The position numbers and the translations under genes are program-made. The notes beneath the pieces are model-generated. The model worked only from the letters and a program-made list of their open reading frames with translations, searched no databases and was not told where the DNA came from. From Alphaproteobacteria bacterium (GTDB lineage Bacteria; Pseudomonadota; Alphaproteobacteria; SHVW01), in NCBI GenBank assembly GCA_016869645.1, contig VGDO01000003.1:14875-78874 (forward strand): a stretch of DNA of 64,000 nt, given 5' to 3'. This document shows positions 4,308-28,775 of the stretch, piece after piece (positions within the stretch are counted from its first letter, which is position 1; the number at the start of each line of letters is the position of its first letter).

Positions 4308-6299
4308 ATGCAATCGGCATCGCGCGGCAGGCGGGGGCCGTTGGCGCACAAGCCATTGACCGATTGGGGGAAGAGGGTGGTTCGATCCCGGCGATTTCGA
4401 TTCTGGCTGAGCAGCCTGGCCGTCTTCATGATGGTGGCCATGGCGGTCCGCCTGGGGCTCGCCTCCTGGGTCGCCTTGTTCGACACGCGCACGGTTCCCG
4501 ATCTGCTGATCGCGGTCGGCTTCGGCGCGGTAAACGACGCAGCCATGGCTCTGGCGCTTGGCCTGCCCTTCCTCATCGCGCTTTATGGGCTACAGCGGCC
4601 CTTGCGCTGGCGCCCCGTTGGCTGGCTCGCCCATGGACTGTTCATGGCGATGCTCGGCGTCCTCGTCTTCGCCGCCGTCGCCGAGTTCTTCTACTGGAAC
4701 GAGTTCAACAGCCGCTTTGCCGGGATCGCGGTCAACTACCTGATCTTTCCACGCGAGGTCATCGGCAATATCCGCGAATCCTTCGATCTGCGCGTCGTCC
4801 TGCCGCCGATCGTCGCGGCATCCCTGCTGCTCTACCTGCTGATGCGGCGCCCGTTGAGAGAGGCGTTGGTCGCGCCCCTCGCCCCCGGCGAGTTCCGGCG
4901 CAGTCTCGGCTTCACGGCCGCGGCATTCGCCGTGATACTGCCCCTGCTCTATTTCGGCCCGTTGCAGGCGAGCCAGAACCGCGAGGTCAACGAAGTCGCG
5001 CGCAACGGTCTCTATTCCCTGTTCCATGCCTTCCTGACCAACGACGCGAACTACGACGGCGTCTACCCCGGCATGGCCGAGCGCGAGGCGCTGCCGCTCA
5101 TGCGCGCGACGGTCGCGCAGGACAATACGCGCTTTCTCGATCCGGACGACCGGCGCAGCCTGCGCCGCTTCGTCGACAACGGGAACGCCCCGAAGAAGCT
5201 CAACGTCGTGCTCGTCATGAACGAGTCGTTCGGCTCGATCTTCGTCGACAGCCTGGACAATCCTCTGGTCGAATCGATCTCGCCGCATCTCGACCGCCTG
5301 GCCGAAGACGGACTGTTCTTCACCTCGATCTACTCGACCGGCGACCGCACGGTGCGCGGGCTCGAGTCCGTGCTGACCTCGTTCACGCCGATACCCGGCA
5401 TTTCGACGGCGCGGCGCGCCGGCTCCGAGGGCATGCATTCCATGCCCGTCCTGCTGCGCCAGCACGGCTACCGCTCGGCCATGCTCTATGGCGGCCGTGC
5501 CGTGTTCGACAACATGGGCCACTACTGGAACTCGATCGGCTTCGACCACGTGTGGGAGCAGAAGGACATCGCGGTTCCCGGCTTCACCACCGCCTGGGGC
5601 GTGGCCGACGAGTATCTCTACACCGATGCGCTCCGGCGCATGGACGAGCATGCGCGGCCGGGCCAGCCCTTCTTCCTCGCCTTGCTGACCGTATCGAACC
5701 ACCGGCCCTATACCTATCCGGAGGGCCGCATCGACAAGGACCCGCGCGGCAAGCGCCGCGAGAATGCGGCCACCTATGCCGACTGGGCGTTCGGCGATTT
5801 CGTCGAGCGCGCCCGCGCGCATTCCTGGTTCGACGACACGGTGTTCATCTTCATCGGCGACCACGGACCGAAGGTGAACGGCGCCGCCCAGGTGCCGGCC
5901 GAGGGCTTCCGCGTGCCTTTGCTCTTTTATGCACCGGCGCACATCAAGCCGGCGCGTCTCGACACCGTCGGTTCCAGCATGGATCTATTTCCGACGCTGC
6001 TCGGCCTGCTCGGCATCAGCCACGAGTCATCCTTCTTCGGCGTCGACCTGACGCGCGTGCCGCCTGGTGAGGGAAGGTTCGCCATGGCCCACAACTACTC
6101 GGTCGCCTGGGGCAAACGCGGGCAGGTCGCCGTGCTCGAGCCGAACGGGACGATCAAGGGGTACCGCGTTGTCGATGCAGGTCGCGAGCTCGAGCTGCTC
6201 GGCCGGCCCGATCCCGAGATCGCGCGCCTGGCGATCGCCGTAACGCAAACCGCACATCGAATGTTTTACGCGCGCGAGTATCACCAGCCGGGGTCGTGA
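4308..6299 (+). CDS. LTA-synthase/sulfatase-family membrane protein (phosphoglycerol transferase OpgB/MdoB-like)
   Basis: Long ORF 3900..6299 trimmed to the first ATG beyond the upstream gene. Multi-TM N-terminus, then an alkaline-phosphatase-superfamily domain (..NVVLVMNESFGS.., ..FIFIGDHGP..). Confidence 0.6.
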   Translation: MQSASRGRRGPLAHKPLTDWGKRVVRSRRFRFWLSSLAVFMMVAMAVRLGLASWVALFDTRTVPDLLIAVGFGAVNDAAMALALGLPFLIALYGLQRPLRWRPVGWLAHGLFMAMLGVLVFAAVAEFFYWNEFNSRFAGIAVNYLIFPREVIGNIRESFDLRVVLPPIVAASLLLYLLMRRPLREALVAPLAPGEFRRSLGFTAAAFAVILPLLYFGPLQASQNREVNEVARNGLYSLFHAFLTNDANYDGVYPGMAEREALPLMRATVAQDNTRFLDPDDRRSLRRFVDNGNAPKKLNVVLVMNESFGSIFVDSLDNPLVESISPHLDRLAEDGLFFTSIYSTGDRTVRGLESVLTSFTPIPGISTARRAGSEGMHSMPVLLRQHGYRSAMLYGGRAVFDNMGHYWNSIGFDHVWEQKDIAVPGFTTAWGVADEYLYTDALRRMDEHARPGQPFFLALLTVSNHRPYTYPEGRIDKDPRGKRRENAATYADWAFGDFVERARAHSWFDDTVFIFIGDHGPKVNGAAQVPAEGFRVPLLFYAPAHIKPARLDTVGSSMDLFPTLLGLLGISHESSFFGVDLTRVPPGEGRFAMAHNYSVAWGKRGQVAVLEPNGTIKGYRVVDAGRELELLGRPDPEIARLAIAVTQTAHRMFYAREYHQPGS

Positions 6300-21190: not shown

Positions 21191-21442
21191 ATGGCTCTCA
21201 ACATCAAATCCGCCAAAGCCGAGAAATTGGCGCGCGAGTTGGCGAAGCGAACCGGTGAGACGATCACCGACGCGGTAACCATGGCACTTGAGGAGCGTCG
21301 CGATCGCGTTGCGCGCGCACGCCGTGGCAAATCCCTGGCCGACGAACTCGATGAGATCGCCAAACGCTGCGCAGCCCTGCCCGTTCTCGACCCGCGCAGT
21401 CCCGACGAGATCCTGTATGACGAAAACGGACTGCCGCGCTGA
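21191..21442 (+). CDS. vapB: type II antitoxin, VapB/FitA-like
   Basis: 83-aa ORF directly upstream of a PIN-domain gene and overlapping it (ATGA). Confidence 0.7.
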   Translation: MALNIKSAKAEKLARELAKRTGETITDAVTMALEERRDRVARARRGKSLADELDEIAKRCAALPVLDPRSPDEILYDENGLPR

Positions 21443-21831
21443 TGGTCATCGACACGTCGGCAATCGTCGCCATTCTCTTCGACGAACCGGAGCGACGAAG
21501 GTTCAACGAGCTCATCGAGGAGGACTCGCATCGTTACCTATCGGCGGCGATGCTGGTGGAGGCGAGCCTCGTTCTCGAAATGAAGCACGGCGACCTTGGC
21601 GCACAAATGCTCGACGTATTCGTTCGTCAGGCGGGTTTCGAGATTGTGCCGTTCGATCGGGATCAGACGAATCTCGCGCGCGAGGCATTTCGTCGGTTTG
21701 GGAAGGGCCGGCATCAGGCGCGGCTCAGTTTCGGCGATTGCTGCGCCTATGCGCTGTCCGCTTTCCCGGGCGAGCCGCTGCTCTTCAAGGGTCAGGATTT
21801 TGCCCATACTGACGTGCTCCCCAAAGTGTGA
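21442..21831 (+). CDS. vapC: type II toxin VapC (PIN-domain ribonuclease)
   Basis: 129 aa beginning MVIDTSAIVAIL.. (PIN N-terminal Asp), with conserved acidic positions later (..EAS.., ..FGDC..). Confidence 0.8.
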   Translation: MVIDTSAIVAILFDEPERRRFNELIEEDSHRYLSAAMLVEASLVLEMKHGDLGAQMLDVFVRQAGFEIVPFDRDQTNLAREAFRRFGKGRHQARLSFGDCCAYALSAFPGEPLLFKGQDFAHTDVLPKV

Positions 21832-21867: not shown

Positions 21868-22917
21868 TTGCGCGTCGACCTCTTTGACTTCGATCTACCG
21901 CGTGAGCTGATTGCCGACCGGCCAGCCGAGCCGCGCGACGCGGCGCGGCTGCTCGTCGTCGGAGAGAAGCTCGCGGATCGCATGGTGGCCGAGCTGGCCG
22001 GCGTGCTGCGCCCTGGCGATCTGCTCGTCGTCAACGACACGCGAGTCATTCCCGCGCGGCTGACCGGTAAGCGCGGCAATGCCGGCATCGAGGCCACGCT
22101 GCACAAGCGCCGGGACGACCAGACTTGGGATGCCTTCGTGCGGCCGGCCAAACGGCTGCGGCCGGGCGATAACATTCGATTTGCAGGCGATCTCCGCGCC
22201 GAGGTTATCGGCAAGGGCGAAGCCGGTGAGGTGACGTTGCGCTTCGATCGCGCCGGCGCCGATCTTCTCGCCGCACTCGAGCGACATGGCGCCATGCCCT
22301 TGCCGCCCTATATCAGACGCGCGTCCGGTCCGGACCCGCGCGACCGCACCGACTATCAGACCGTCTTTGCCGAGAGGCCCGGCGCCGTTGCGGCACCGAC
22401 CGCGGGACTGCATTTCACGCCGGCTTTGCTTCAGGCATTGGAAACCGCGGGCATCGGCCGCGTCAGCGTCACGCTCCATGTCGGCGCCGGCACCTTCCTG
22501 CCGGTCAAGGCCGACGACACGCGCGACCATCGGATGCATGCGGAATGGGGCCTGCTCTCGGCCGAAACTGCGTCGGCGATCAATGCCGCACGCGCCAAGG
22601 GCGGGCGCATCGTCGCGGTCGGCACGACCGCGCTGCGCCTGCTCGAGACGGTGAGCGATCCCGCGGGCCGTATTGCGCCTTTCTCCGGCGAAACCGACAT
22701 CTTCATCACGCCGGGCTACCGTTTTCGAGCGGTCGACCTGCTGCTCACCAACTTCCACCTGCCACGCTCGACCCTGTTCATGCTGGTCGCGGCGTTTTCC
22801 GGCTTGCGCCGGATGCGGGCCGCCTATGACCATGCGATCCGCGCAGGCTACCGTTTCTACTCCTACGGCGATGCCTGCCTGCTTCATCCTCACGCGGAGC
22901 CACCGCCGCAACCATGA
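21868..22917 (+). CDS. queA: S-adenosylmethionine:tRNA ribosyltransferase-isomerase
   Basis: N-terminus [11 protein letters not shown].. and ..PLPPYI.. motifs typical of QueA. TTG 21868 chosen; the ORF opens at TTG 21856. Confidence 0.85.
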
Positions 22918-24035
22918 CCTCGGGCCTGGCCTTCACGATTGACACCATCGACGGCGCGGCGCGGCTGGGCCGGCTCGACACCGCCCATGGTTCGGTGCGC
23001 ACGCCGGCCTTCATGCCGGTCGGTACGGCCGCGACCGTCAAGGCCATGACGCCGGAATCGGTGCGTGCGACCGGCGCGGACATCATCCTCGGCAACACCT
23101 ACCACCTCATGCTGCGGCCGACGGCGGAGCGCATCGAACGCCTGGGCGGGCTGCACAAATTCATGAACTGGCCGGGCCCCATCCTGACCGACTCCGGCGG
23201 CTTCCAGGTCATGTCGCTCGCCAAGCTGCGTCGCATCGAGGAGACCGGCGTCACCTTCCAGTCCCATCTCGACGGTGCGACCATCAAGCTGACGCCCGAG
23301 CGTTCGATCGATATCCAGCGCATGCTCGGCGCCGACATCACCATGGCGTTCGACGAGTGCACGCCCTACCCGTCAAGCGAGGAGGACGCCGCCACGTCGA
23401 TGCGGCTTTCCATGCGCTGGGCCGCGCGCTCGAAGGCGGCTTTCGACGCGCGCGCAGGCCACGGATTGTTCGGCATCGTGCAGGGAAGCGTCTACCCTGG
23501 GCTTCGCGCGGAATCGGCCGCGGCACTGACCGATCTCGGCTTTGACGGGTATGCGATCGGCGGATTGGCCGTCGGCGAGGGTCAGGAGCAGATGTTCCAG
23601 GTCCTCGACGCGATCGTGCCGAGGCTGCCCGCCGGCCGACCGCGCTATCTGATGGGGGTCGGCAAGCCCGACGACATTGTCGGTGCCGTGCTGCGCGGCG
23701 TCGACATGTTCGACTGCGTGCTGCCGACACGCTCCGGGCGCACCGCCCAGGCGTTCACGCGCACGGGCACCATCAATCTGCGCAATGCGCGTCATGCCGA
23801 CGATCCGGAGCCGCTCGACCCGGCGTGCCGATGCCCGGCCTGCACGCAGTACAGCCGCGCCTACCTGCACCACCTCGCCAAGGCCGAGGAAATACTCGGC
23901 CCCATGCTGCTGACCTGGCACAACCTCACCTACTACCAGGACCTGATGGCCGAACTGCGCGCCGCAATTTCGGCCCGAGGCGTGTCGGCCTTTGCCGCCG
24001 CCTTCGCGGCACGCGGCGGCGAGGATGGCGGCTGA
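22914..24035 (+). CDS. tgt: queuine tRNA-ribosyltransferase
   Basis: ..PAFMPVGT.., ..LTDSGGFQ.., and zinc site ..[17 protein letters not shown]... Start overlaps the queA stop. Confidence 0.9.
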
Positions 24036-24192
24036 CGCGACCCCTGCTACGCGCCGGGAAAAGGCGACTCCGGCTTTTGGCTGCGTTCCGCCTGGCGACC
24101 GTGATAGATTGGTATGCCGATATCCGGCCCCTCGCCCGCAGCCAAGGTCGCGCCGGGCGGGATTTCAGCGACCTGGGTCCAGACGCCGAAGA

Positions 24193-25431
24193 ATGTCGTC
24201 GCCCGTCACCAGCCGCCCCGGCAAGGGCCCGAGCCAGGAATACCTTCTGCTCGACTATCTGAACCGCCTGTCGGGCAACTGCGAGGCGCGGATCGGCATT
24301 CACGTGCATTTGTCGCGGCTGAAGCCGCACAACCGCAAAGAACACCACACGCGCGTCGCGGCGGCCACCTTCGACTCGCTGATCCAGGCCTATGAAGGCC
24401 AGACCTTCGTGCTGAGCAACTCGGACATCGTGCTGACCTGCAAGGGCGCGCCCCCGGCGGAGATCGACACGACGATCGCCAAGGTGCGCTTCCTGTTCAG
24501 CGACGATCCACTGGGCCAGGGCGACAGCGAAGATGACATCGCGCGCTTCTGCACGCGCTTCAATCTCGAGACCAATTACGAAGAGATGGTCAAGTCGGTG
24601 CAATCCATGCACCGCGACCGCGAGCGCCGTCTGCGCCAGGACGCCACCCTCGGCCGCACCGACCTCGGCATCAAGAAGGGCGGGCGCAAGCCGATCGATC
24701 CCGATCAGCTCGACCGCCTCGAGACCTTCCTGGCGCGCGCCGACCTGTCGAACCTGATGCGCCGCCAGTCGATCGTCGCCGTGCCTCTCAACGGCTATCC
24801 GCAGAGCGTGTTCCAGGAACTCTACATCTCCATCCCCGATCTTCAGCAGACAGTGACCCCCGACGTCGACCTGTTCGCCAATCCGTGGTTGTTCCAGCGC
24901 CTGACCCGTGTGCTCGACAACCGCATGCTGGCCATGCTGATGCGCAATGACGACAGCACGATCGCCAGCTCGTTCAGCATCAACCTCAACGTGCTGACCG
25001 TGCTGACGCCGGCTTTCCTGCGCTTCGATTCGAGCCTCAAGGCGCTCGCCCGGGGCACGATGGCGGTCGAGCTGCAGATGATCGACGTCTTTTCGGACCT
25101 GACGGCATTCTTCTTCGTGCGGGACTTTCTCCGGGAGCGCGGCTACCGCGTCTGTCTCGACGGACTCACGCACCACACGCTCCCCTTCGTCGACCGCGAG
25201 CGCCTCGGCTTCGATCTGCTCAAGATGATCTGGGCGGCCGAGATGGCCGACGACCTCTCGGGCAAGCGCCAGGAGGAGATCAAGTCGCAGATCAACCGAG
25301 CAAGCCGCGCGCGCATCATCCTGTGTCGCTGCGACTCCGAGGAAGCGATTCACTTCGGCCAAAGCGTCGGCCTCAGCATGTTTCAGGGCCGCTACGTCGA
25401 AAAGATGATGAGCAAGGACCGCGTGGTCTAG
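24193..25431 (+). CDS. hypothetical protein with degenerate EAL-like C-terminal domain
   Basis: ORF 23992..25431 trimmed to the first ATG after the tgt stop (412 aa). The C-terminal half follows EAL-domain architecture by eye (..SINLNV.., ..AVELQMID.., ..[24 protein letters not shown].., ..[30 protein letters not shown]) but lacks the EAL and DDFGTGYSS catalytic motifs. The N-terminal half is unassigned. Confidence 0.45.
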
Positions 25432-25457: not shown

Positions 25458-25922
25458 ATGGCTGACAAGCCCTATCAGAATCTGACTCAGCTCGGGTCGT
25501 CGGCGCGCTTGCCGGAATCGCCCGACGCCGCACGCATCGAAACCGTGCCCAACCCGCAGCCGGGCACGCTCTACCTCGTGCGCTTCACGGCGCCCGAGTT
25601 CACTTGCCTGTGCCCGGTCACGGGCCAGCCCGACTTCGCGCATTTCGTCATCGACTACGTGCCCGATCGCGCCATCGTCGAGAGCAAGTCGCTCAAGCTC
25701 TACCTTGGCTCGTACCGCAACCAGGCTGCCTTCCACGAGGCGTGCACGCTCGACATCGCCAAGCGCCTCGTCGACGCGCTCAAGCCGCAATGGCTGCGCA
25801 TGGGCGGCTACTGGTACCCGCGCGGCGGCATGCCGATCGATGTCTTCTACCAGACCGGTCCGGCCCCAGGCGATTTGTGGCTGCCCGATCAGGGCGTCGC
25901 ACCCTACCGGGGTCGCGGCTGA
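25458..25922 (+). CDS. queF: NADPH-dependent 7-cyano-7-deazaguanine reductase
   Basis: 154-aa unimodular QueF: catalytic Cys in ..[14 protein letters not shown].. and the ..[11 protein letters not shown].. motif. Confidence 0.85.
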
Positions 25923-25929
25923 AGCCGCC

Positions 25930-27063
25930 GTGAGCGGCACCAACCAGGCGATCCGCGATCAGGCGTTGGCGCTCGGCTTCGACGCCGTCGGTTTCGCACC
26001 GGCGACTCTCGACCCGTCGGCCAAGGCGCGTTTTCGCGCGTTTCTCGCGGCAGGCAAGCATGGCGACATGGGCTGGCTCGCCGACAAGGCCGACCGGCGC
26101 GACGCGCCCAATGCGCTGTGGCCCGCGGCGCGCTCGGTCGTCGTGGTCGGCCAGAACTATGGCGCCGCCGACGATCCGCTCGCCACGCTGAGCGAGCGAG
26201 GCCGGGCAACGTTGTCGGTCTACGCACGCCGGCGCGACTACCACGACGTCATGAAGCGCCGCCTCAAGGCGCTCGGTCGCTGGATGCACGAGCGCTATCG
26301 CTGCGAGGTCAAGGTGTTCGTCGACACCGCACCCGTGCTCGAGAAGCCGCTCGCCGCGCGCACCGCTCTCGGCTGGCAGGGCAAGCACACCAATCTCGTC
26401 TCGCGCGAGTTCGGCTCATGGCTCTTTCTCGGCGAGGTCTACACCACGCTCGACATACCGGCGGACTTGCCGGCGCTCGACACCTGCGGCACCTGCCAGC
26501 GCTGCCTCGACGTCTGCCCGACCGCGGCATTCCCCGCGCCTTACCAGCTCGACGCGACGCGCTGCATCTCGTACTTGACGATCGAGCACAAGGGCCACAT
26601 CGCCCGCGAGTTCCGCCGGCCGATGGGCAACCGCATCTATGGCTGCGACGACTGCCTCGCGGTCTGTCCGTGGAACCGCTTCGCCCGGGTATCCCAGGAC
26701 AGCGCGCTGGCCCTCCGCCCCGAGCTCGCCGCGCCGCCGCTCGACCGATTGGCGCGGCTCGACGACGCAGCGTTTCGCACGCTGTTTGCCGGCACGCCGA
26801 TCAAACGGCTTGGTCGCGATCGCTTCCTGCGCAACGTGCTGATCGCGATCGGCAACAGCGGCGATGGGGCGCTTGCAGCCGTCGCGCGGGAACGGCTGGA
26901 AGATGGCTCGCCTCTGGTGCGCGCCATGGCGGTTTGGGCGCTGGCGGAGCTCGTAAACCGCCAGGATTTCGCCGCCCTGCGCGCGCGTCACCTGCCGGGG
27001 GAAGGCGATCCGGATGTGCAGGCGGAATGGCGCGCCGCTCAGCCTGACGATGCCGTCGCCTGA
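25930..27063 (+). CDS. queG: epoxyqueuosine reductase
   Basis: GTG start 8 nt after the queF stop. Two 4Fe-4S motifs (CGTCQRCLDVCP, CDDCLAVCPWN) and a C-terminal HEAT-like region. Confidence 0.8.
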   Translation: MSGTNQAIRDQALALGFDAVGFAPATLDPSAKARFRAFLAAGKHGDMGWLADKADRRDAPNALWPAARSVVVVGQNYGAADDPLATLSERGRATLSVYARRRDYHDVMKRRLKALGRWMHERYRCEVKVFVDTAPVLEKPLAARTALGWQGKHTNLVSREFGSWLFLGEVYTTLDIPADLPALDTCGTCQRCLDVCPTAAFPAPYQLDATRCISYLTIEHKGHIAREFRRPMGNRIYGCDDCLAVCPWNRFARVSQDSALALRPELAAPPLDRLARLDDAAFRTLFAGTPIKRLGRDRFLRNVLIAIGNSGDGALAAVARERLEDGSPLVRAMAVWALAELVNRQDFAALRARHLPGEGDPDVQAEWRAAQPDDAVA

Positions 27064-28775
27064 GCTCCCTGTCGATCGCACCAGCGCCGCCACAGACGCC
27101 GATAAGCCTGCTCGAGATCACGCGCGCCGCCCACCGCGTCGCACAGCCGCGATGCGGCCAGGCGTTCGCGCAGCGTGGTTCGCAGCCCGGCCCGAAGGTC
27201 GGCATCCTCGGCGATGGCCGCCGCCTTCGCCACGTAGTCCGCTTCGCTCACGGCGATGCCCTCGGTCAGGCCGGCGGCTCTCAGCATGGCCGCGCCATAG
27301 CGTCCCAGCACGCGATTGCCCTCGAGCGTCACGACCGGGACCCCCATCCACATCGCATCGCCGGTCGTGGTCACGCCGCCATAGGGAACAGAGTCGAGGG
27401 CCACGTCGATCTCGTGGTAGACGGTGAGATGTTCGGTCAGATCTGGCGTCCAGCCACGCAGGTCGAGGCGCTCGGTGGGAATGCCCGCTTGCTTGGCGCG
27501 GGCGATCAGCGCGGCGCGGCTCGAGGCATCGCCGAGCGCCCGGCCCTTGATCAGCAGGCGCGATCCCGGAACCGCGGCCAGCACACCGGCCCACAGGCGC
27601 AGGGCGTGCGAACCCACTTTCGACAGATTGTTGGTGCTGCCGAAGACGATCGGTCCGAAGCGTGGCTCGGCGCGCGCCGGCGGCGCCTCGATCAGCGGCC
27701 GCCAGCGATAGATCAGGGGCACGCGTTCGATCGGCTCGGAAAACTGCCGCTCCATCTCCGGCGGCAGGACCTGATCATCGGCGATCAGGCAGTCGACGAC
27801 ATCGGTGCCCAGACTCATCATCGGCGGCAGCATGGTCTGCACCGGCGCCGGACGGCGCGCCAGCGCGCATAACCGCGAACCTTCGACGAACCCAACCGTG
27901 TCCACCAGGACATCGATGCCATCGGCGCGGATGGCGCGCGCCAGGGCCTCGTCGTCGAGTTGTCCGGTACGGCGCCAAGTCGAGCAGGCGCGGTAGCCGG
28001 CCGTGATCGGATCTTCCTGCGCTTCCGGCAGATCGGAATAGCAGAAGAGGTCGACCTCGGCGCGGTCGTGGCCTTCCAGCAGCGCCAGGAACATGGTCGA
28101 TTGCGTGTGGAAGCCGAACAGCGTTCCGCCGACATAGCCGACGCGCAAGCGCCGCTCGGGATCGGGCTGGTTGGCGTGGCGGGGCGCGGACGGCTTGAGC
28201 GGCGCCGCGTAGAGTGCGCTCCATCGCGTGGCTGCCGCAACCTGCTGCATTCCGTCGCCCGGCACCAGATTGTAGGTGAGGAGGAGGTTGCGCCAGTAGC
28301 GCAGGGTGTCGGGCCGAAATGCCACCGCGGCGGCGAAGTGGGGCAGTGCTGCGTCGGCGTCTCCGGCTGCCAGATGGTTGCCGCCCATGTCGTTGTGTGC
28401 GGCGACATCATCCGGCCGGACGGCGAGCGCGCGCGCGAAGTCGGCGGCCGCCACGCCATACTGTCCGGCGTCCAGCCGGCAGTAGCCGCGAAGGATGGCG
28501 GCCTCGGCGTGGTCCGACTTGCCGCGCAGCGCGCGGCTGAACCATTCGATCGCTGTCGACTTATCCTGACGCTCCAGTGCGATCACGCCCATGAGATGGC
28601 AGGCGTTGACCTCGCCCGGAATCCGCTTCAACAATTCGCGATAGACGGCTTCCGCCTCGGCGCTGCGACCGGCACGCTGGTGCATGACGCCGAGATCGAG
28701 CAGCTGGCCCGGCGTGAGTGCCGTCGCCGCCCGTTTCTGCTCGCGCTCCCGGCGCCGCCGCTCCTGACGGTTCAT
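27039..28775 (-). CDS. TPR-repeat protein with C-terminal O-GlcNAc-transferase-like (GT41-family) domain
   Basis: 578 aa with N-terminal TPR repeats and a C-terminal GT41-like region. Its 3' end overlaps the queG 3' end by 25 nt (convergent). Confidence 0.6.
   Translation of the reverse strand: MNRQERRRREREQKRAATALTPGQLLDLGVMHQRAGRSAEAEAVYRELLKRIPGEVNACHLMGVIALERQDKSTAIEWFSRALRGKSDHAEAAILRGYCRLDAGQYGVAAADFARALAVRPDDVAAHNDMGGNHLAAGDADAALPHFAAAVAFRPDTLRYWRNLLLTYNLVPGDGMQQVAAATRWSALYAAPLKPSAPRHANQPDPERRLRVGYVGGTLFGFHTQSTMFLALLEGHDRAEVDLFCYSDLPEAQEDPITAGYRACSTWRRTGQLDDEALARAIRADGIDVLVDTVGFVEGSRLCALARRPAPVQTMLPPMMSLGTDVVDCLIADDQVLPPEMERQFSEPIERVPLIYRWRPLIEAPPARAEPRFGPIVFGSTNNLSKVGSHALRLWAGVLAAVPGSRLLIKGRALGDASSRAALIARAKQAGIPTERLDLRGWTPDLTEHLTVYHEIDVALDSVPYGGVTTTGDAMWMGVPVVTLEGNRVLGRYGAAMLRAAGLTEGIAVSEADYVAKAAAIAEDADLRAGLRTTLRERLAASRLCDAVGGARDLEQAYRRLWRRWCDRQGAQATASSG

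Follow-up and report, generated by a model that had tools for sequence, protein, structure and literature searches.

Several EAL-domain proteins have been described in which the phosphodiesterase active site is incomplete. YdiV and CsrD are degenerate EAL regulators that act independently of a ligand. LapD (structures 3pjw from P. fluorescens, 6pwj and 6pwk from V. cholerae) joins an S helix to a degenerate GGDEF and a degenerate EAL domain; in the latter a Lys replaces the Glu of the EAL motif (KVL), while the Arg that follows the motif, R450, is kept and lies at the centre of the site for cyclic diguanylate (c-di-GMP). Of 10 residues important for activity, FimX (P. aeruginosa and Xanthomonas) retains 4, one of them the Arg (R479; PMC3527489). 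For BluF (YcgF), part of one published account (PMC3509220) describes a degenerate EAL protein that acts purely through protein contacts. The protein analysed here, of 412 amino acids (aa), is encoded at 24193-25431 on the forward strand of a 64,000-nt stretch of contig VGDO01000003.1 (alphaproteobacterial assembly GCA_016869645.1; the whole stretch is called the window below, and coordinates refer to it). Its EAL-type domain is degenerate in a sense opposite to that of the known c-di-GMP receptors, with the metal ligands kept and the Arg lost. The gene interrupts a block of queuosine genes (queA-tgt and queF-queG), which makes a link between a second messenger and queuosine tRNA modification tempting; this link is removed by comparative gene order, which points to a lineage-specific gene relocation rather than a conserved system. 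There remains a widespread family, still uncharacterised, whose ~900 clusters at 50% identity come from Rhodospirillales-like Alphaproteobacteria.

The open reading frame (ORF) begins with an ATG at 24193 and closes at 25431. Its product is 100% identical to a public protein, P0001, from a metagenome-assembled genome (MAG), whose public gene call starts and ends at the same positions, and the ORF is a genuine gene. A public protein search returned 1064 homologues, and the same MAG encodes at least one paralogue (P0078, 51% identity) in another gene context. There is no transmembrane segment (maximum Kyte-Doolittle value 1.36 over a 19-residue window), and since a hydrophobic segment is absent the protein is predicted to be soluble and cytoplasmic. 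The AlphaFold2 model, built on 81 sequences, has two domains, with a mean predicted local distance difference test score (pLDDT) of 86.3 and a predicted template-modelling score (pTM) of 0.59. NCBIfam has no model matching the protein, and a phmmer search with the single sequence found no match among PDB sequences; family members are named “EAL domain-containing protein” or “hypothetical protein” in public databases. Literature searches found no characterised member of the family, nor any paper relevantly connecting queuosine genes with EAL proteins.

The C-terminal part (residues ~170-411, 24700-25425) is predicted to form a divergent EAL-type (beta/alpha) barrel with half an active site. The 412-aa protein itself does not reach the curated Pfam threshold for EAL (PF00563), scoring 22.9 bits over residues 233-404 (model positions 59-235) where 31.3 are required, and most members score below or near this threshold. 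The homology is credible even so, because 76 of 81 family members match EAL at E <= 0.01 (best 3.2e-11). When a family profile was compared with the PDB, residues 258-402 aligned with the EAL domain of the phosphodiesterase RbdA (PA0861), the best sequence-profile match (E = 2e-6). In Foldseek searches with the AlphaFold2 model, isolated EAL structures (FimX, LapD, MorA, PA3825, PdeA, and YkuI) were matched at E = 2e-8 to 7e-7, with probability 1.0 and target-normalised TM-scores (TMt) of 0.55-0.66; the FimX EAL domains were found at 2e-8 to 4e-7, and the LapD EAL domain alone had the best TMt (0.65-0.66) among the EAL-only matches listed. The full-length model aligned with tandem GGDEF-EAL structures (RbdA, MorA, LapD, DosP, and PA0575) over 430-460 columns, at E = 6e-13 to 2e-9. 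The best overall structural matches were to the active phosphodiesterases RbdA (5xgb, 5.9e-13) and MorA (4rnf, 3.8e-12); LapD, which resembles the protein in its architecture of about 400 residues of alpha/beta domain plus EAL, aligned over ~430-450 columns at E = 1e-11 to 8e-10. BluF, YdiV, and CsrD, which serve as regulatory scaffolds without phosphodiesterase activity, were compared at the level of the degenerate EAL fold. The relationship to EAL domains is secure at the family level, and by the models the C-terminal part of this protein has the EAL-type fold.

Active-site positions were mapped from motif spacing and two alignments, the one to RbdA from the profile search and one made with MAFFT against a canonical EAL domain (motifs could not be placed by hhalign with a single canonical EAL sequence, the signal being too weak), and conservation was counted over 92 sequences, consisting of the 412-aa protein and 91 full-length cluster representatives 27-47% identical to it. 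The Gln of the “QP” motif is kept as Q192, and the Glu of “EAL” (which reads E-L-Y here) as E209, with Glu in 87 of the 92. Also kept are the Asn of “INLS” (N264; Asn in 80/92), the first Glu of “ExTE” (E293; 83/92), the first Asp of “DDFG” (D323; 82/92), the Lys of “KxD” (K344; 86/92), and “QG” as Q398-G399 (Gln in 88/92). The equivalents of E209, N264, E293, and D323 bind the first metal ion in EAL structures, and the Lys is catalytic. Among the losses are the residues that make up the second metal site and the general base in those structures. The Arg of EALxR is replaced by S213 (Ser in 68 of the 92 sequences, Arg in none); the second Glu of ExTE, here M296, is lost throughout the family; the second Asp of DDFG is replaced by G324 (Gly in 78/92, Asp in 2/92); and the first Glu of EGVE is replaced by C378, a position that is mostly Cys, Ser, Ala, or Thr, with Glu outside the six commonest residues. 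In the same motif D381 takes the place of the second Glu, a conservative change.

Since the same pattern runs through 92 diverse sequences, the degenerate state is, as far as sequence can tell, ancestral to the family, and conservation of the kept residues across that set indicates that the retained half-site is under purifying selection. The active phosphodiesterases RbdA and MorA share INL(S/N), E-x-(T/Q), LD, LK, and QG motifs with the family, but have the full ExLxR, ExTE, DDFGTG, KxD, and EGVE sets; in the family the Arg and the general-base Glu are missing, as are the second Glu of ExTE and the second Asp of DDFG. Because the Arg, the second-metal Asp, and the general-base Glu are lost, canonical two-metal hydrolysis of c-di-GMP by the 412-aa protein is unlikely, and very probably impossible. 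An earlier note on this DNA, made from the sequence alone, had proposed an EAL architecture for the C-terminal half and a catalytically dead domain, quoting a 13-letter string that is indeed present at residues 320-332; profile and structure comparisons agree with both proposals. It had also described the EAL, DDFGTGYSS, and metal-binding residues as replaced, which holds at positions 213, 296, 324, and 378, but is contradicted by the retention of E209, N264, E293, D323, K344, and Q398. It had reported no recognisable match for the N-terminal half, and Pfam gives none either.

That half begins with an alpha/beta domain (residues ~15-125, 24235-24567) modelled as ferredoxin-like, occupying the place that GGDEF has in GGDEF-EAL proteins. 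Two independent models agree on a helix followed by a beta-alpha-beta-beta-alpha-beta arrangement, and both continue with a long helix (residues 129-156) and a disordered, low-confidence linker (~157-169; helix and linker together 24577-24699). The domain was considered as a degenerate GGDEF, and this claim was dropped. Pfam searches with 24 N-domains returned only noise even at E <= 10, with no match to GGDEF (PF00990), and the 412-aa protein has no GG[DE]EF motif. Foldseek matches to the isolated domain were not significant, although the list was rich in GGDEF, cyclase, and palm folds, and hhalign of the N-domain profile with a genuine GGDEF domain (the only one found in 2.1 Mb of loci) gave a probability of 0.16. 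The domain is best called ferredoxin-like, in GGDEF position, with homology to GGDEF left as a candidate. Searched against 1.84 billion representative proteins, the N-domain profile found 898 clusters at E <= 0.001. In these it is always N-terminal, nearly always in proteins of 400-460 aa (shorter matches resemble contig fragments), which argues that it is specific to this architecture. S41, D78, and D105 are near-invariant over the 92 sequences. Among degenerate EAL-family signalling proteins, this unannotated N-domain and the unusual pattern of degeneracy are what is distinctive about the family.

The reading preferred here, to which a probability of roughly 0.6 is given, is that the protein is a non-catalytic sensor or effector, binding a nucleotide with one metal ion and signalling through its N-domain and helix, and that it stands in the queuosine operon by historical accident. 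It would be a soluble, cytoplasmic member of the GGDEF-EAL-like class of signalling proteins, with a ferredoxin-like N-domain, a long helix, and a divergent EAL barrel. The half-site (E209, N264, E293, and D323, with K344 and Q398) may bind a phosphate-containing nucleotide together with one metal ion, with c-di-GMP as the default candidate, and the signal would be passed to a partner via the N-domain and helix. Were the ligand and partner found, the range of EAL-derived pseudo-enzymes would be extended.

Several points weigh against this reading. As described above, Pfam, Foldseek, and hhalign do not demonstrate homology of the N-domain to GGDEF, and with a pTM of 0.59 the modelled geometry between the domains is uncertain. 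That the four metal ligands and the Lys are so strictly kept could instead point to a catalytic activity that is residual or altered. The order in which the gene is embedded among queuosine genes persists to 79% identity despite changes in the outer flanks, which is compatible with a functional coupling specific to that clade. The family is also without the Arg that is central to the LapD site and kept in FimX, making canonical c-di-GMP binding uncertain. A degenerate receptor of the LapD or FimX type would be expected to carry it, and position 213 is Arg in none of the 92 members. LapD and the family protein are alike in that both their domains are non-canonical, but where LapD has lost the Glu of EAL and kept the Arg, the family has kept E209 and replaced the Arg by Ser; and where LapD has a GGDEF domain, the family has an N-domain without detectable sequence similarity to one. 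FimX shares the EAL fold, an incomplete catalytic set, and the organisation of a multidomain signalling protein with a degenerate GGDEF domain in front; it differs in having REC and PAS domains besides, and in keeping the Arg, where the family keeps the four first-metal ligands and the Lys. As the degeneracy is the inverse of that in LapD and FimX, confidence in c-di-GMP binding in the usual mode is lowered, while confidence in some ligand is not. Binding of c-di-GMP by this family is possible, if weakened as a proposal by the residue pattern.

Among the alternatives, a ligand-independent regulator that binds protein or RNA on a dead EAL scaffold, in the manner of YdiV, BluF, and CsrD, is unlikely but fares best. 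Such proteins exist, as the part of the BluF account cited above (PMC3509220) illustrates, and loss of the canonical c-di-GMP Arg is what might be expected of one. The candidates for what it would regulate, RegB/RegA or envelope and adhesin genes, come from the neighbours of the family elsewhere. A scan of one genome per species gave more than 555 relatives, and locus counts below refer to the best 80 of these (45-62% identity), which are from Thalassobaculaceae, Nisaea, Oceanibaculum, Stellaceae, Aliidongia, and others; neighbours were identified by adjacent-gene clustering and targeted tblastn, a first clustering that was swamped by spurious high-GC ORFs having been replaced. The commonest neighbour, in 44 of the 80 species and throughout the tree, is a response regulator of the RegA/PrrA/ActR type (Response_reg plus a Fis-type helix-turn-helix), tail-to-tail with the family gene and usually 16-340 nt downstream of it; a RegB-like kinase follows the RegA-type gene in the one locus examined. 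This position appears to be ancestral, and a known ligand and partner might explain so old an adjacency. A convergent pair, however, says little about functional coupling.

Upstream of the family gene, the neighbours vary by subclade. In 16 of the 80 loci there is a divergent upstream gene for a BBP2_2 outer-membrane barrel. A giant RTX/FG-GAP gene, possibly for an adhesin, is found within 8 kb in 10 of them, and in 8 loci of Thalassobaculaceae it immediately precedes the family gene in the same orientation; where it lies 210-351 nt upstream the loci are L006, L007, L020-L024, and L026-L028. Two of the gene calls are for proteins of 6008 and 6201 aa, with RTX nonapeptide repeats, FG-GAP, and DUF642, for which the gene-call tables list no precomputed Pfam match. 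In 9 of the 80 (L055, L057, L060, L063, L065, L070, and L075-L077) a Peptidase_C93/BTLCP gene, of the LapG family, lies 131-219 nt upstream on the same strand. Nine loci (L050, L061, L064, L067-L069, L071, L081, and L084) have a tandem paralogue, 34-46% identical to the 412-aa protein, directly upstream. No RegA, BBP2_2, giant RTX, or BTLCP neighbour is present in the window. The direct upstream genes for BTLCPs, RTX giants, or BBP2_2 barrels in subclades are compatible with a protein-contact role, as is the RegA pairing; but purifying selection on the metal site, the Lys, and the Gln is hard to explain without a small-molecule ligand, and it is this strict conservation that sets the family apart from the BluF, YdiV, and CsrD type and argues for one. 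A Ysc84-domain lipoprotein gene was also seen downstream in L061-type loci.

The BTLCP and RTX neighbours (upstream in 9/80 and 8/80 family loci, respectively) recall the LapD-LapG-RTX system, and suggested a LapD-like model, which was rejected. Unlike LapD, the 412-aa protein has no transmembrane helices, periplasmic domain, or HAMP domain, its fold beginning at residue ~15; lacking any part in the membrane or periplasm, it cannot by itself sequester a periplasmic protease inside-out in the LapD style. Such neighbours occur in only ~10% of loci, and the LapG (BTLCP) protease and giant RTX adhesin expected of a LapD-type linkage are both absent from the window. BTLCP genes are found widely across Alphaproteobacteria, in varied contexts (PMC4241560).

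An active hydrolase with a non-canonical one-metal site (E209, N264, E293, D323, and K344), working on c-di-GMP, pGpG, or another substrate, is quite unlikely. It would account for the retention of the four metal ligands and the Lys in 80-88 of the 92 sequences, far more than in known receptors (FimX, with its 4 of 10 residues, being the comparison). Yet three residues reportedly found to be required by mutagenesis of RocR and TBD1265 are absent family-wide (the second Asp of DDFG and, in ExTE and EGVE, the second and the first Glu, respectively); the Arg is gone too, and there is the poor fit of most members to the Pfam EAL model. The argument is tempered by a debate over how many Mg2+ ions EAL catalysis requires (PMC3527489, which also summarises the mutagenesis of RocR and TBD1265).

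A more ambitious combination, which seems decidedly improbable, would make the protein a new soluble EAL-derived sensor, whose one-metal half-site without Arg holds either c-di-GMP in a new mode or some different ligand, and whose hitherto undescribed N-domain signals to the RegB/RegA redox system or to envelope and adhesin machinery; its capture by the queuosine operon would then have put queF-queG under its promoter and coupled queuosine synthesis to its signal.

The association with queuosine genes breaks down outside a narrow group. In the window, queA (21856/21868-22917, +; Pfam Queuosine_synth, 7e-128, and the NCBIfam QueA equivalog) overlaps tgt (22914-24035, +; Pfam TGT, 2e-156, and TIGR00430), and the ORF follows after 157 nt; queF (25458-25922, +; Pfam QueF, TIGR03139, and a public gene call) begins 26 nt beyond it, and queG (25930-27063, +; TIGR00276, 1e-126, and a public gene call) 7 nt beyond queF. 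The earlier note had this same-strand arrangement right, as coordinates, gene call, and Pfam and NCBIfam matches agree. Closer relatives have it as well, at 87% (P0004), 81% (P0006, tgt side only), and 79% identity (P0007), with outer flanks that differ in part, but those at 66% (P0008) and 62% (P0011) do not, so that queA-tgt-ORF-queF-queG order is restricted to one tip clade of four lineages at 79% identity or above. When the window QueA, Tgt, QueF, and QueG were searched by tblastn in the 8 kb around each orthologue, none of the 80 orthologous loci of other species had a que gene, and co-localisation is thus not conserved across lineages. Conversely, the ORF is absent from all of 80 metagenome loci chosen around the nearest relatives of the window QueG; queA-tgt-queF-queG is uninterrupted in 7 complete blocks and several partial ones, with tgt-queF gaps of ~50-90 nt. 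In one of these loci (L112) an unrelated Fic/DOC gene (5416-6039, -) occupies the same tgt/queF junction in opposite orientation, and the junction therefore seems to tolerate insertions.

In a neighbour-joining tree the four que-embedded copies form a single tip clade, sister to a copy in another context and nested among clades that adjoin regA, and the embedded arrangement is accordingly placed as derived by the tree. GC content at third codon positions (GC3) is 0.89 for the ORF and 0.79-0.87 for the que genes; this host-like value suggests that the gene moved within the lineage and is not foreign DNA. On the preferred reading, the gene for a nucleotide-binding signalling protein would have moved once, in a single lineage and probably together with its promoter, to a place between tgt and queF in an operon whose order is otherwise an unbroken queA-tgt-queF-queG. 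The earlier note had taken the gene to be conserved in line with the four queuosine genes, which is true of the clade at or above 79% identity and fails for the family; it had also proposed an accessory or regulatory role in queuosine modification, and neighbourhood comparison, which it had itself suggested as a check, finds relatives with the ORF away from que genes and que blocks without the ORF, the kind of outcome that the note had named as refuting its view. Nor are the relatives, from Thalassobaculaceae, Nisaea, Oceanibaculum, and Stellaceae-type lineages, evidently Rhizobiales, the group in which the note had proposed to look. A queuosine accessory or regulator specific to this clade, controlling for example preQ1 reduction or epoxyqueuosine reduction through a second messenger, is very improbable: four lineages keep the embedded order while their outer flanks differ, and the short spacer to queF makes co-transcription likely, but against this stand the two counts of 0/80, the single derived tip clade, the Fic gene accepted at the same junction, the want of a riboswitch or other que-related element nearby, and the que-embedded proteins themselves, which keep the family-invariant residues as elsewhere and give no sign of a new function. 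No connection of the 412-aa protein with queuosine is demonstrated or conserved, and a role in queuosine tRNA modification is unsupported.

The only likely consequence of the move in the que-embedded clade is that queF-queG would be transcribed with the ORF. The ORF-queF spacer is 12-59 nt in the three embedded loci that include queF, short enough that co-transcription is likely. The longer spacer between tgt and the ORF (24036-24192, +) carries a motif, CGTG(A/T)TAGA(T/A)T, which by alignment is common to all four que-embedded loci; in the window it occupies 24100-24111 (CGTGATAGATTG; positions 24100-24110 read CGTGATAGATT). It looks like an extended -10 element, and the consensus promoter scan did not flag it. 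The shared upstream motif and the short gap to queF suggest that the ORF arrived with a promoter of its own, and that transcription of the ORF now extends to queF-queG. The scan found no terminator-like site or consensus promoter between genes of the que block, including the ORF-queF gap. No riboswitch or other Rfam family was found in the que region or the whole window, and the search for tRNAs found none.

A 478-aa open frame on the opposite strand (23926-25362, -) covers nearly all of the 412-aa ORF. It was not taken as a gene, being a typical high-GC artefact; similar shadow ORFs lie over queA, tgt, and queG.

The QueG-centred loci also show variant compact que operons: queA-tgt-queG without queF (L093, L107), queA-queF-queG without tgt (L097, L109), and queG-queA (L103). 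In 59 of the 80 (within L093-L172), queG was the only que gene detected, some of the contigs being short.

Directly 5′ of queA in the window lies a toxin-antitoxin pair (21191-21831, +), VapB (PSK_trans_fac) and VapC (PIN). Its GC3 is ~0.70, against ~0.86 in the genes around it, which suggests a mobile insertion; the pair is also found 5′ of queA in the relative at 79% identity (L173) but not in that at 87% (L088). On the other side of the block, a gene combining tetratricopeptide repeats with a glycosyltransferase family 41 domain (O-GlcNAc-transferase-like; 27039-28775, -) is convergent with queG, the 3′ ends overlapping by ~25 nt, and a gene of this kind adjoins queG in both L088 and L173 as well.

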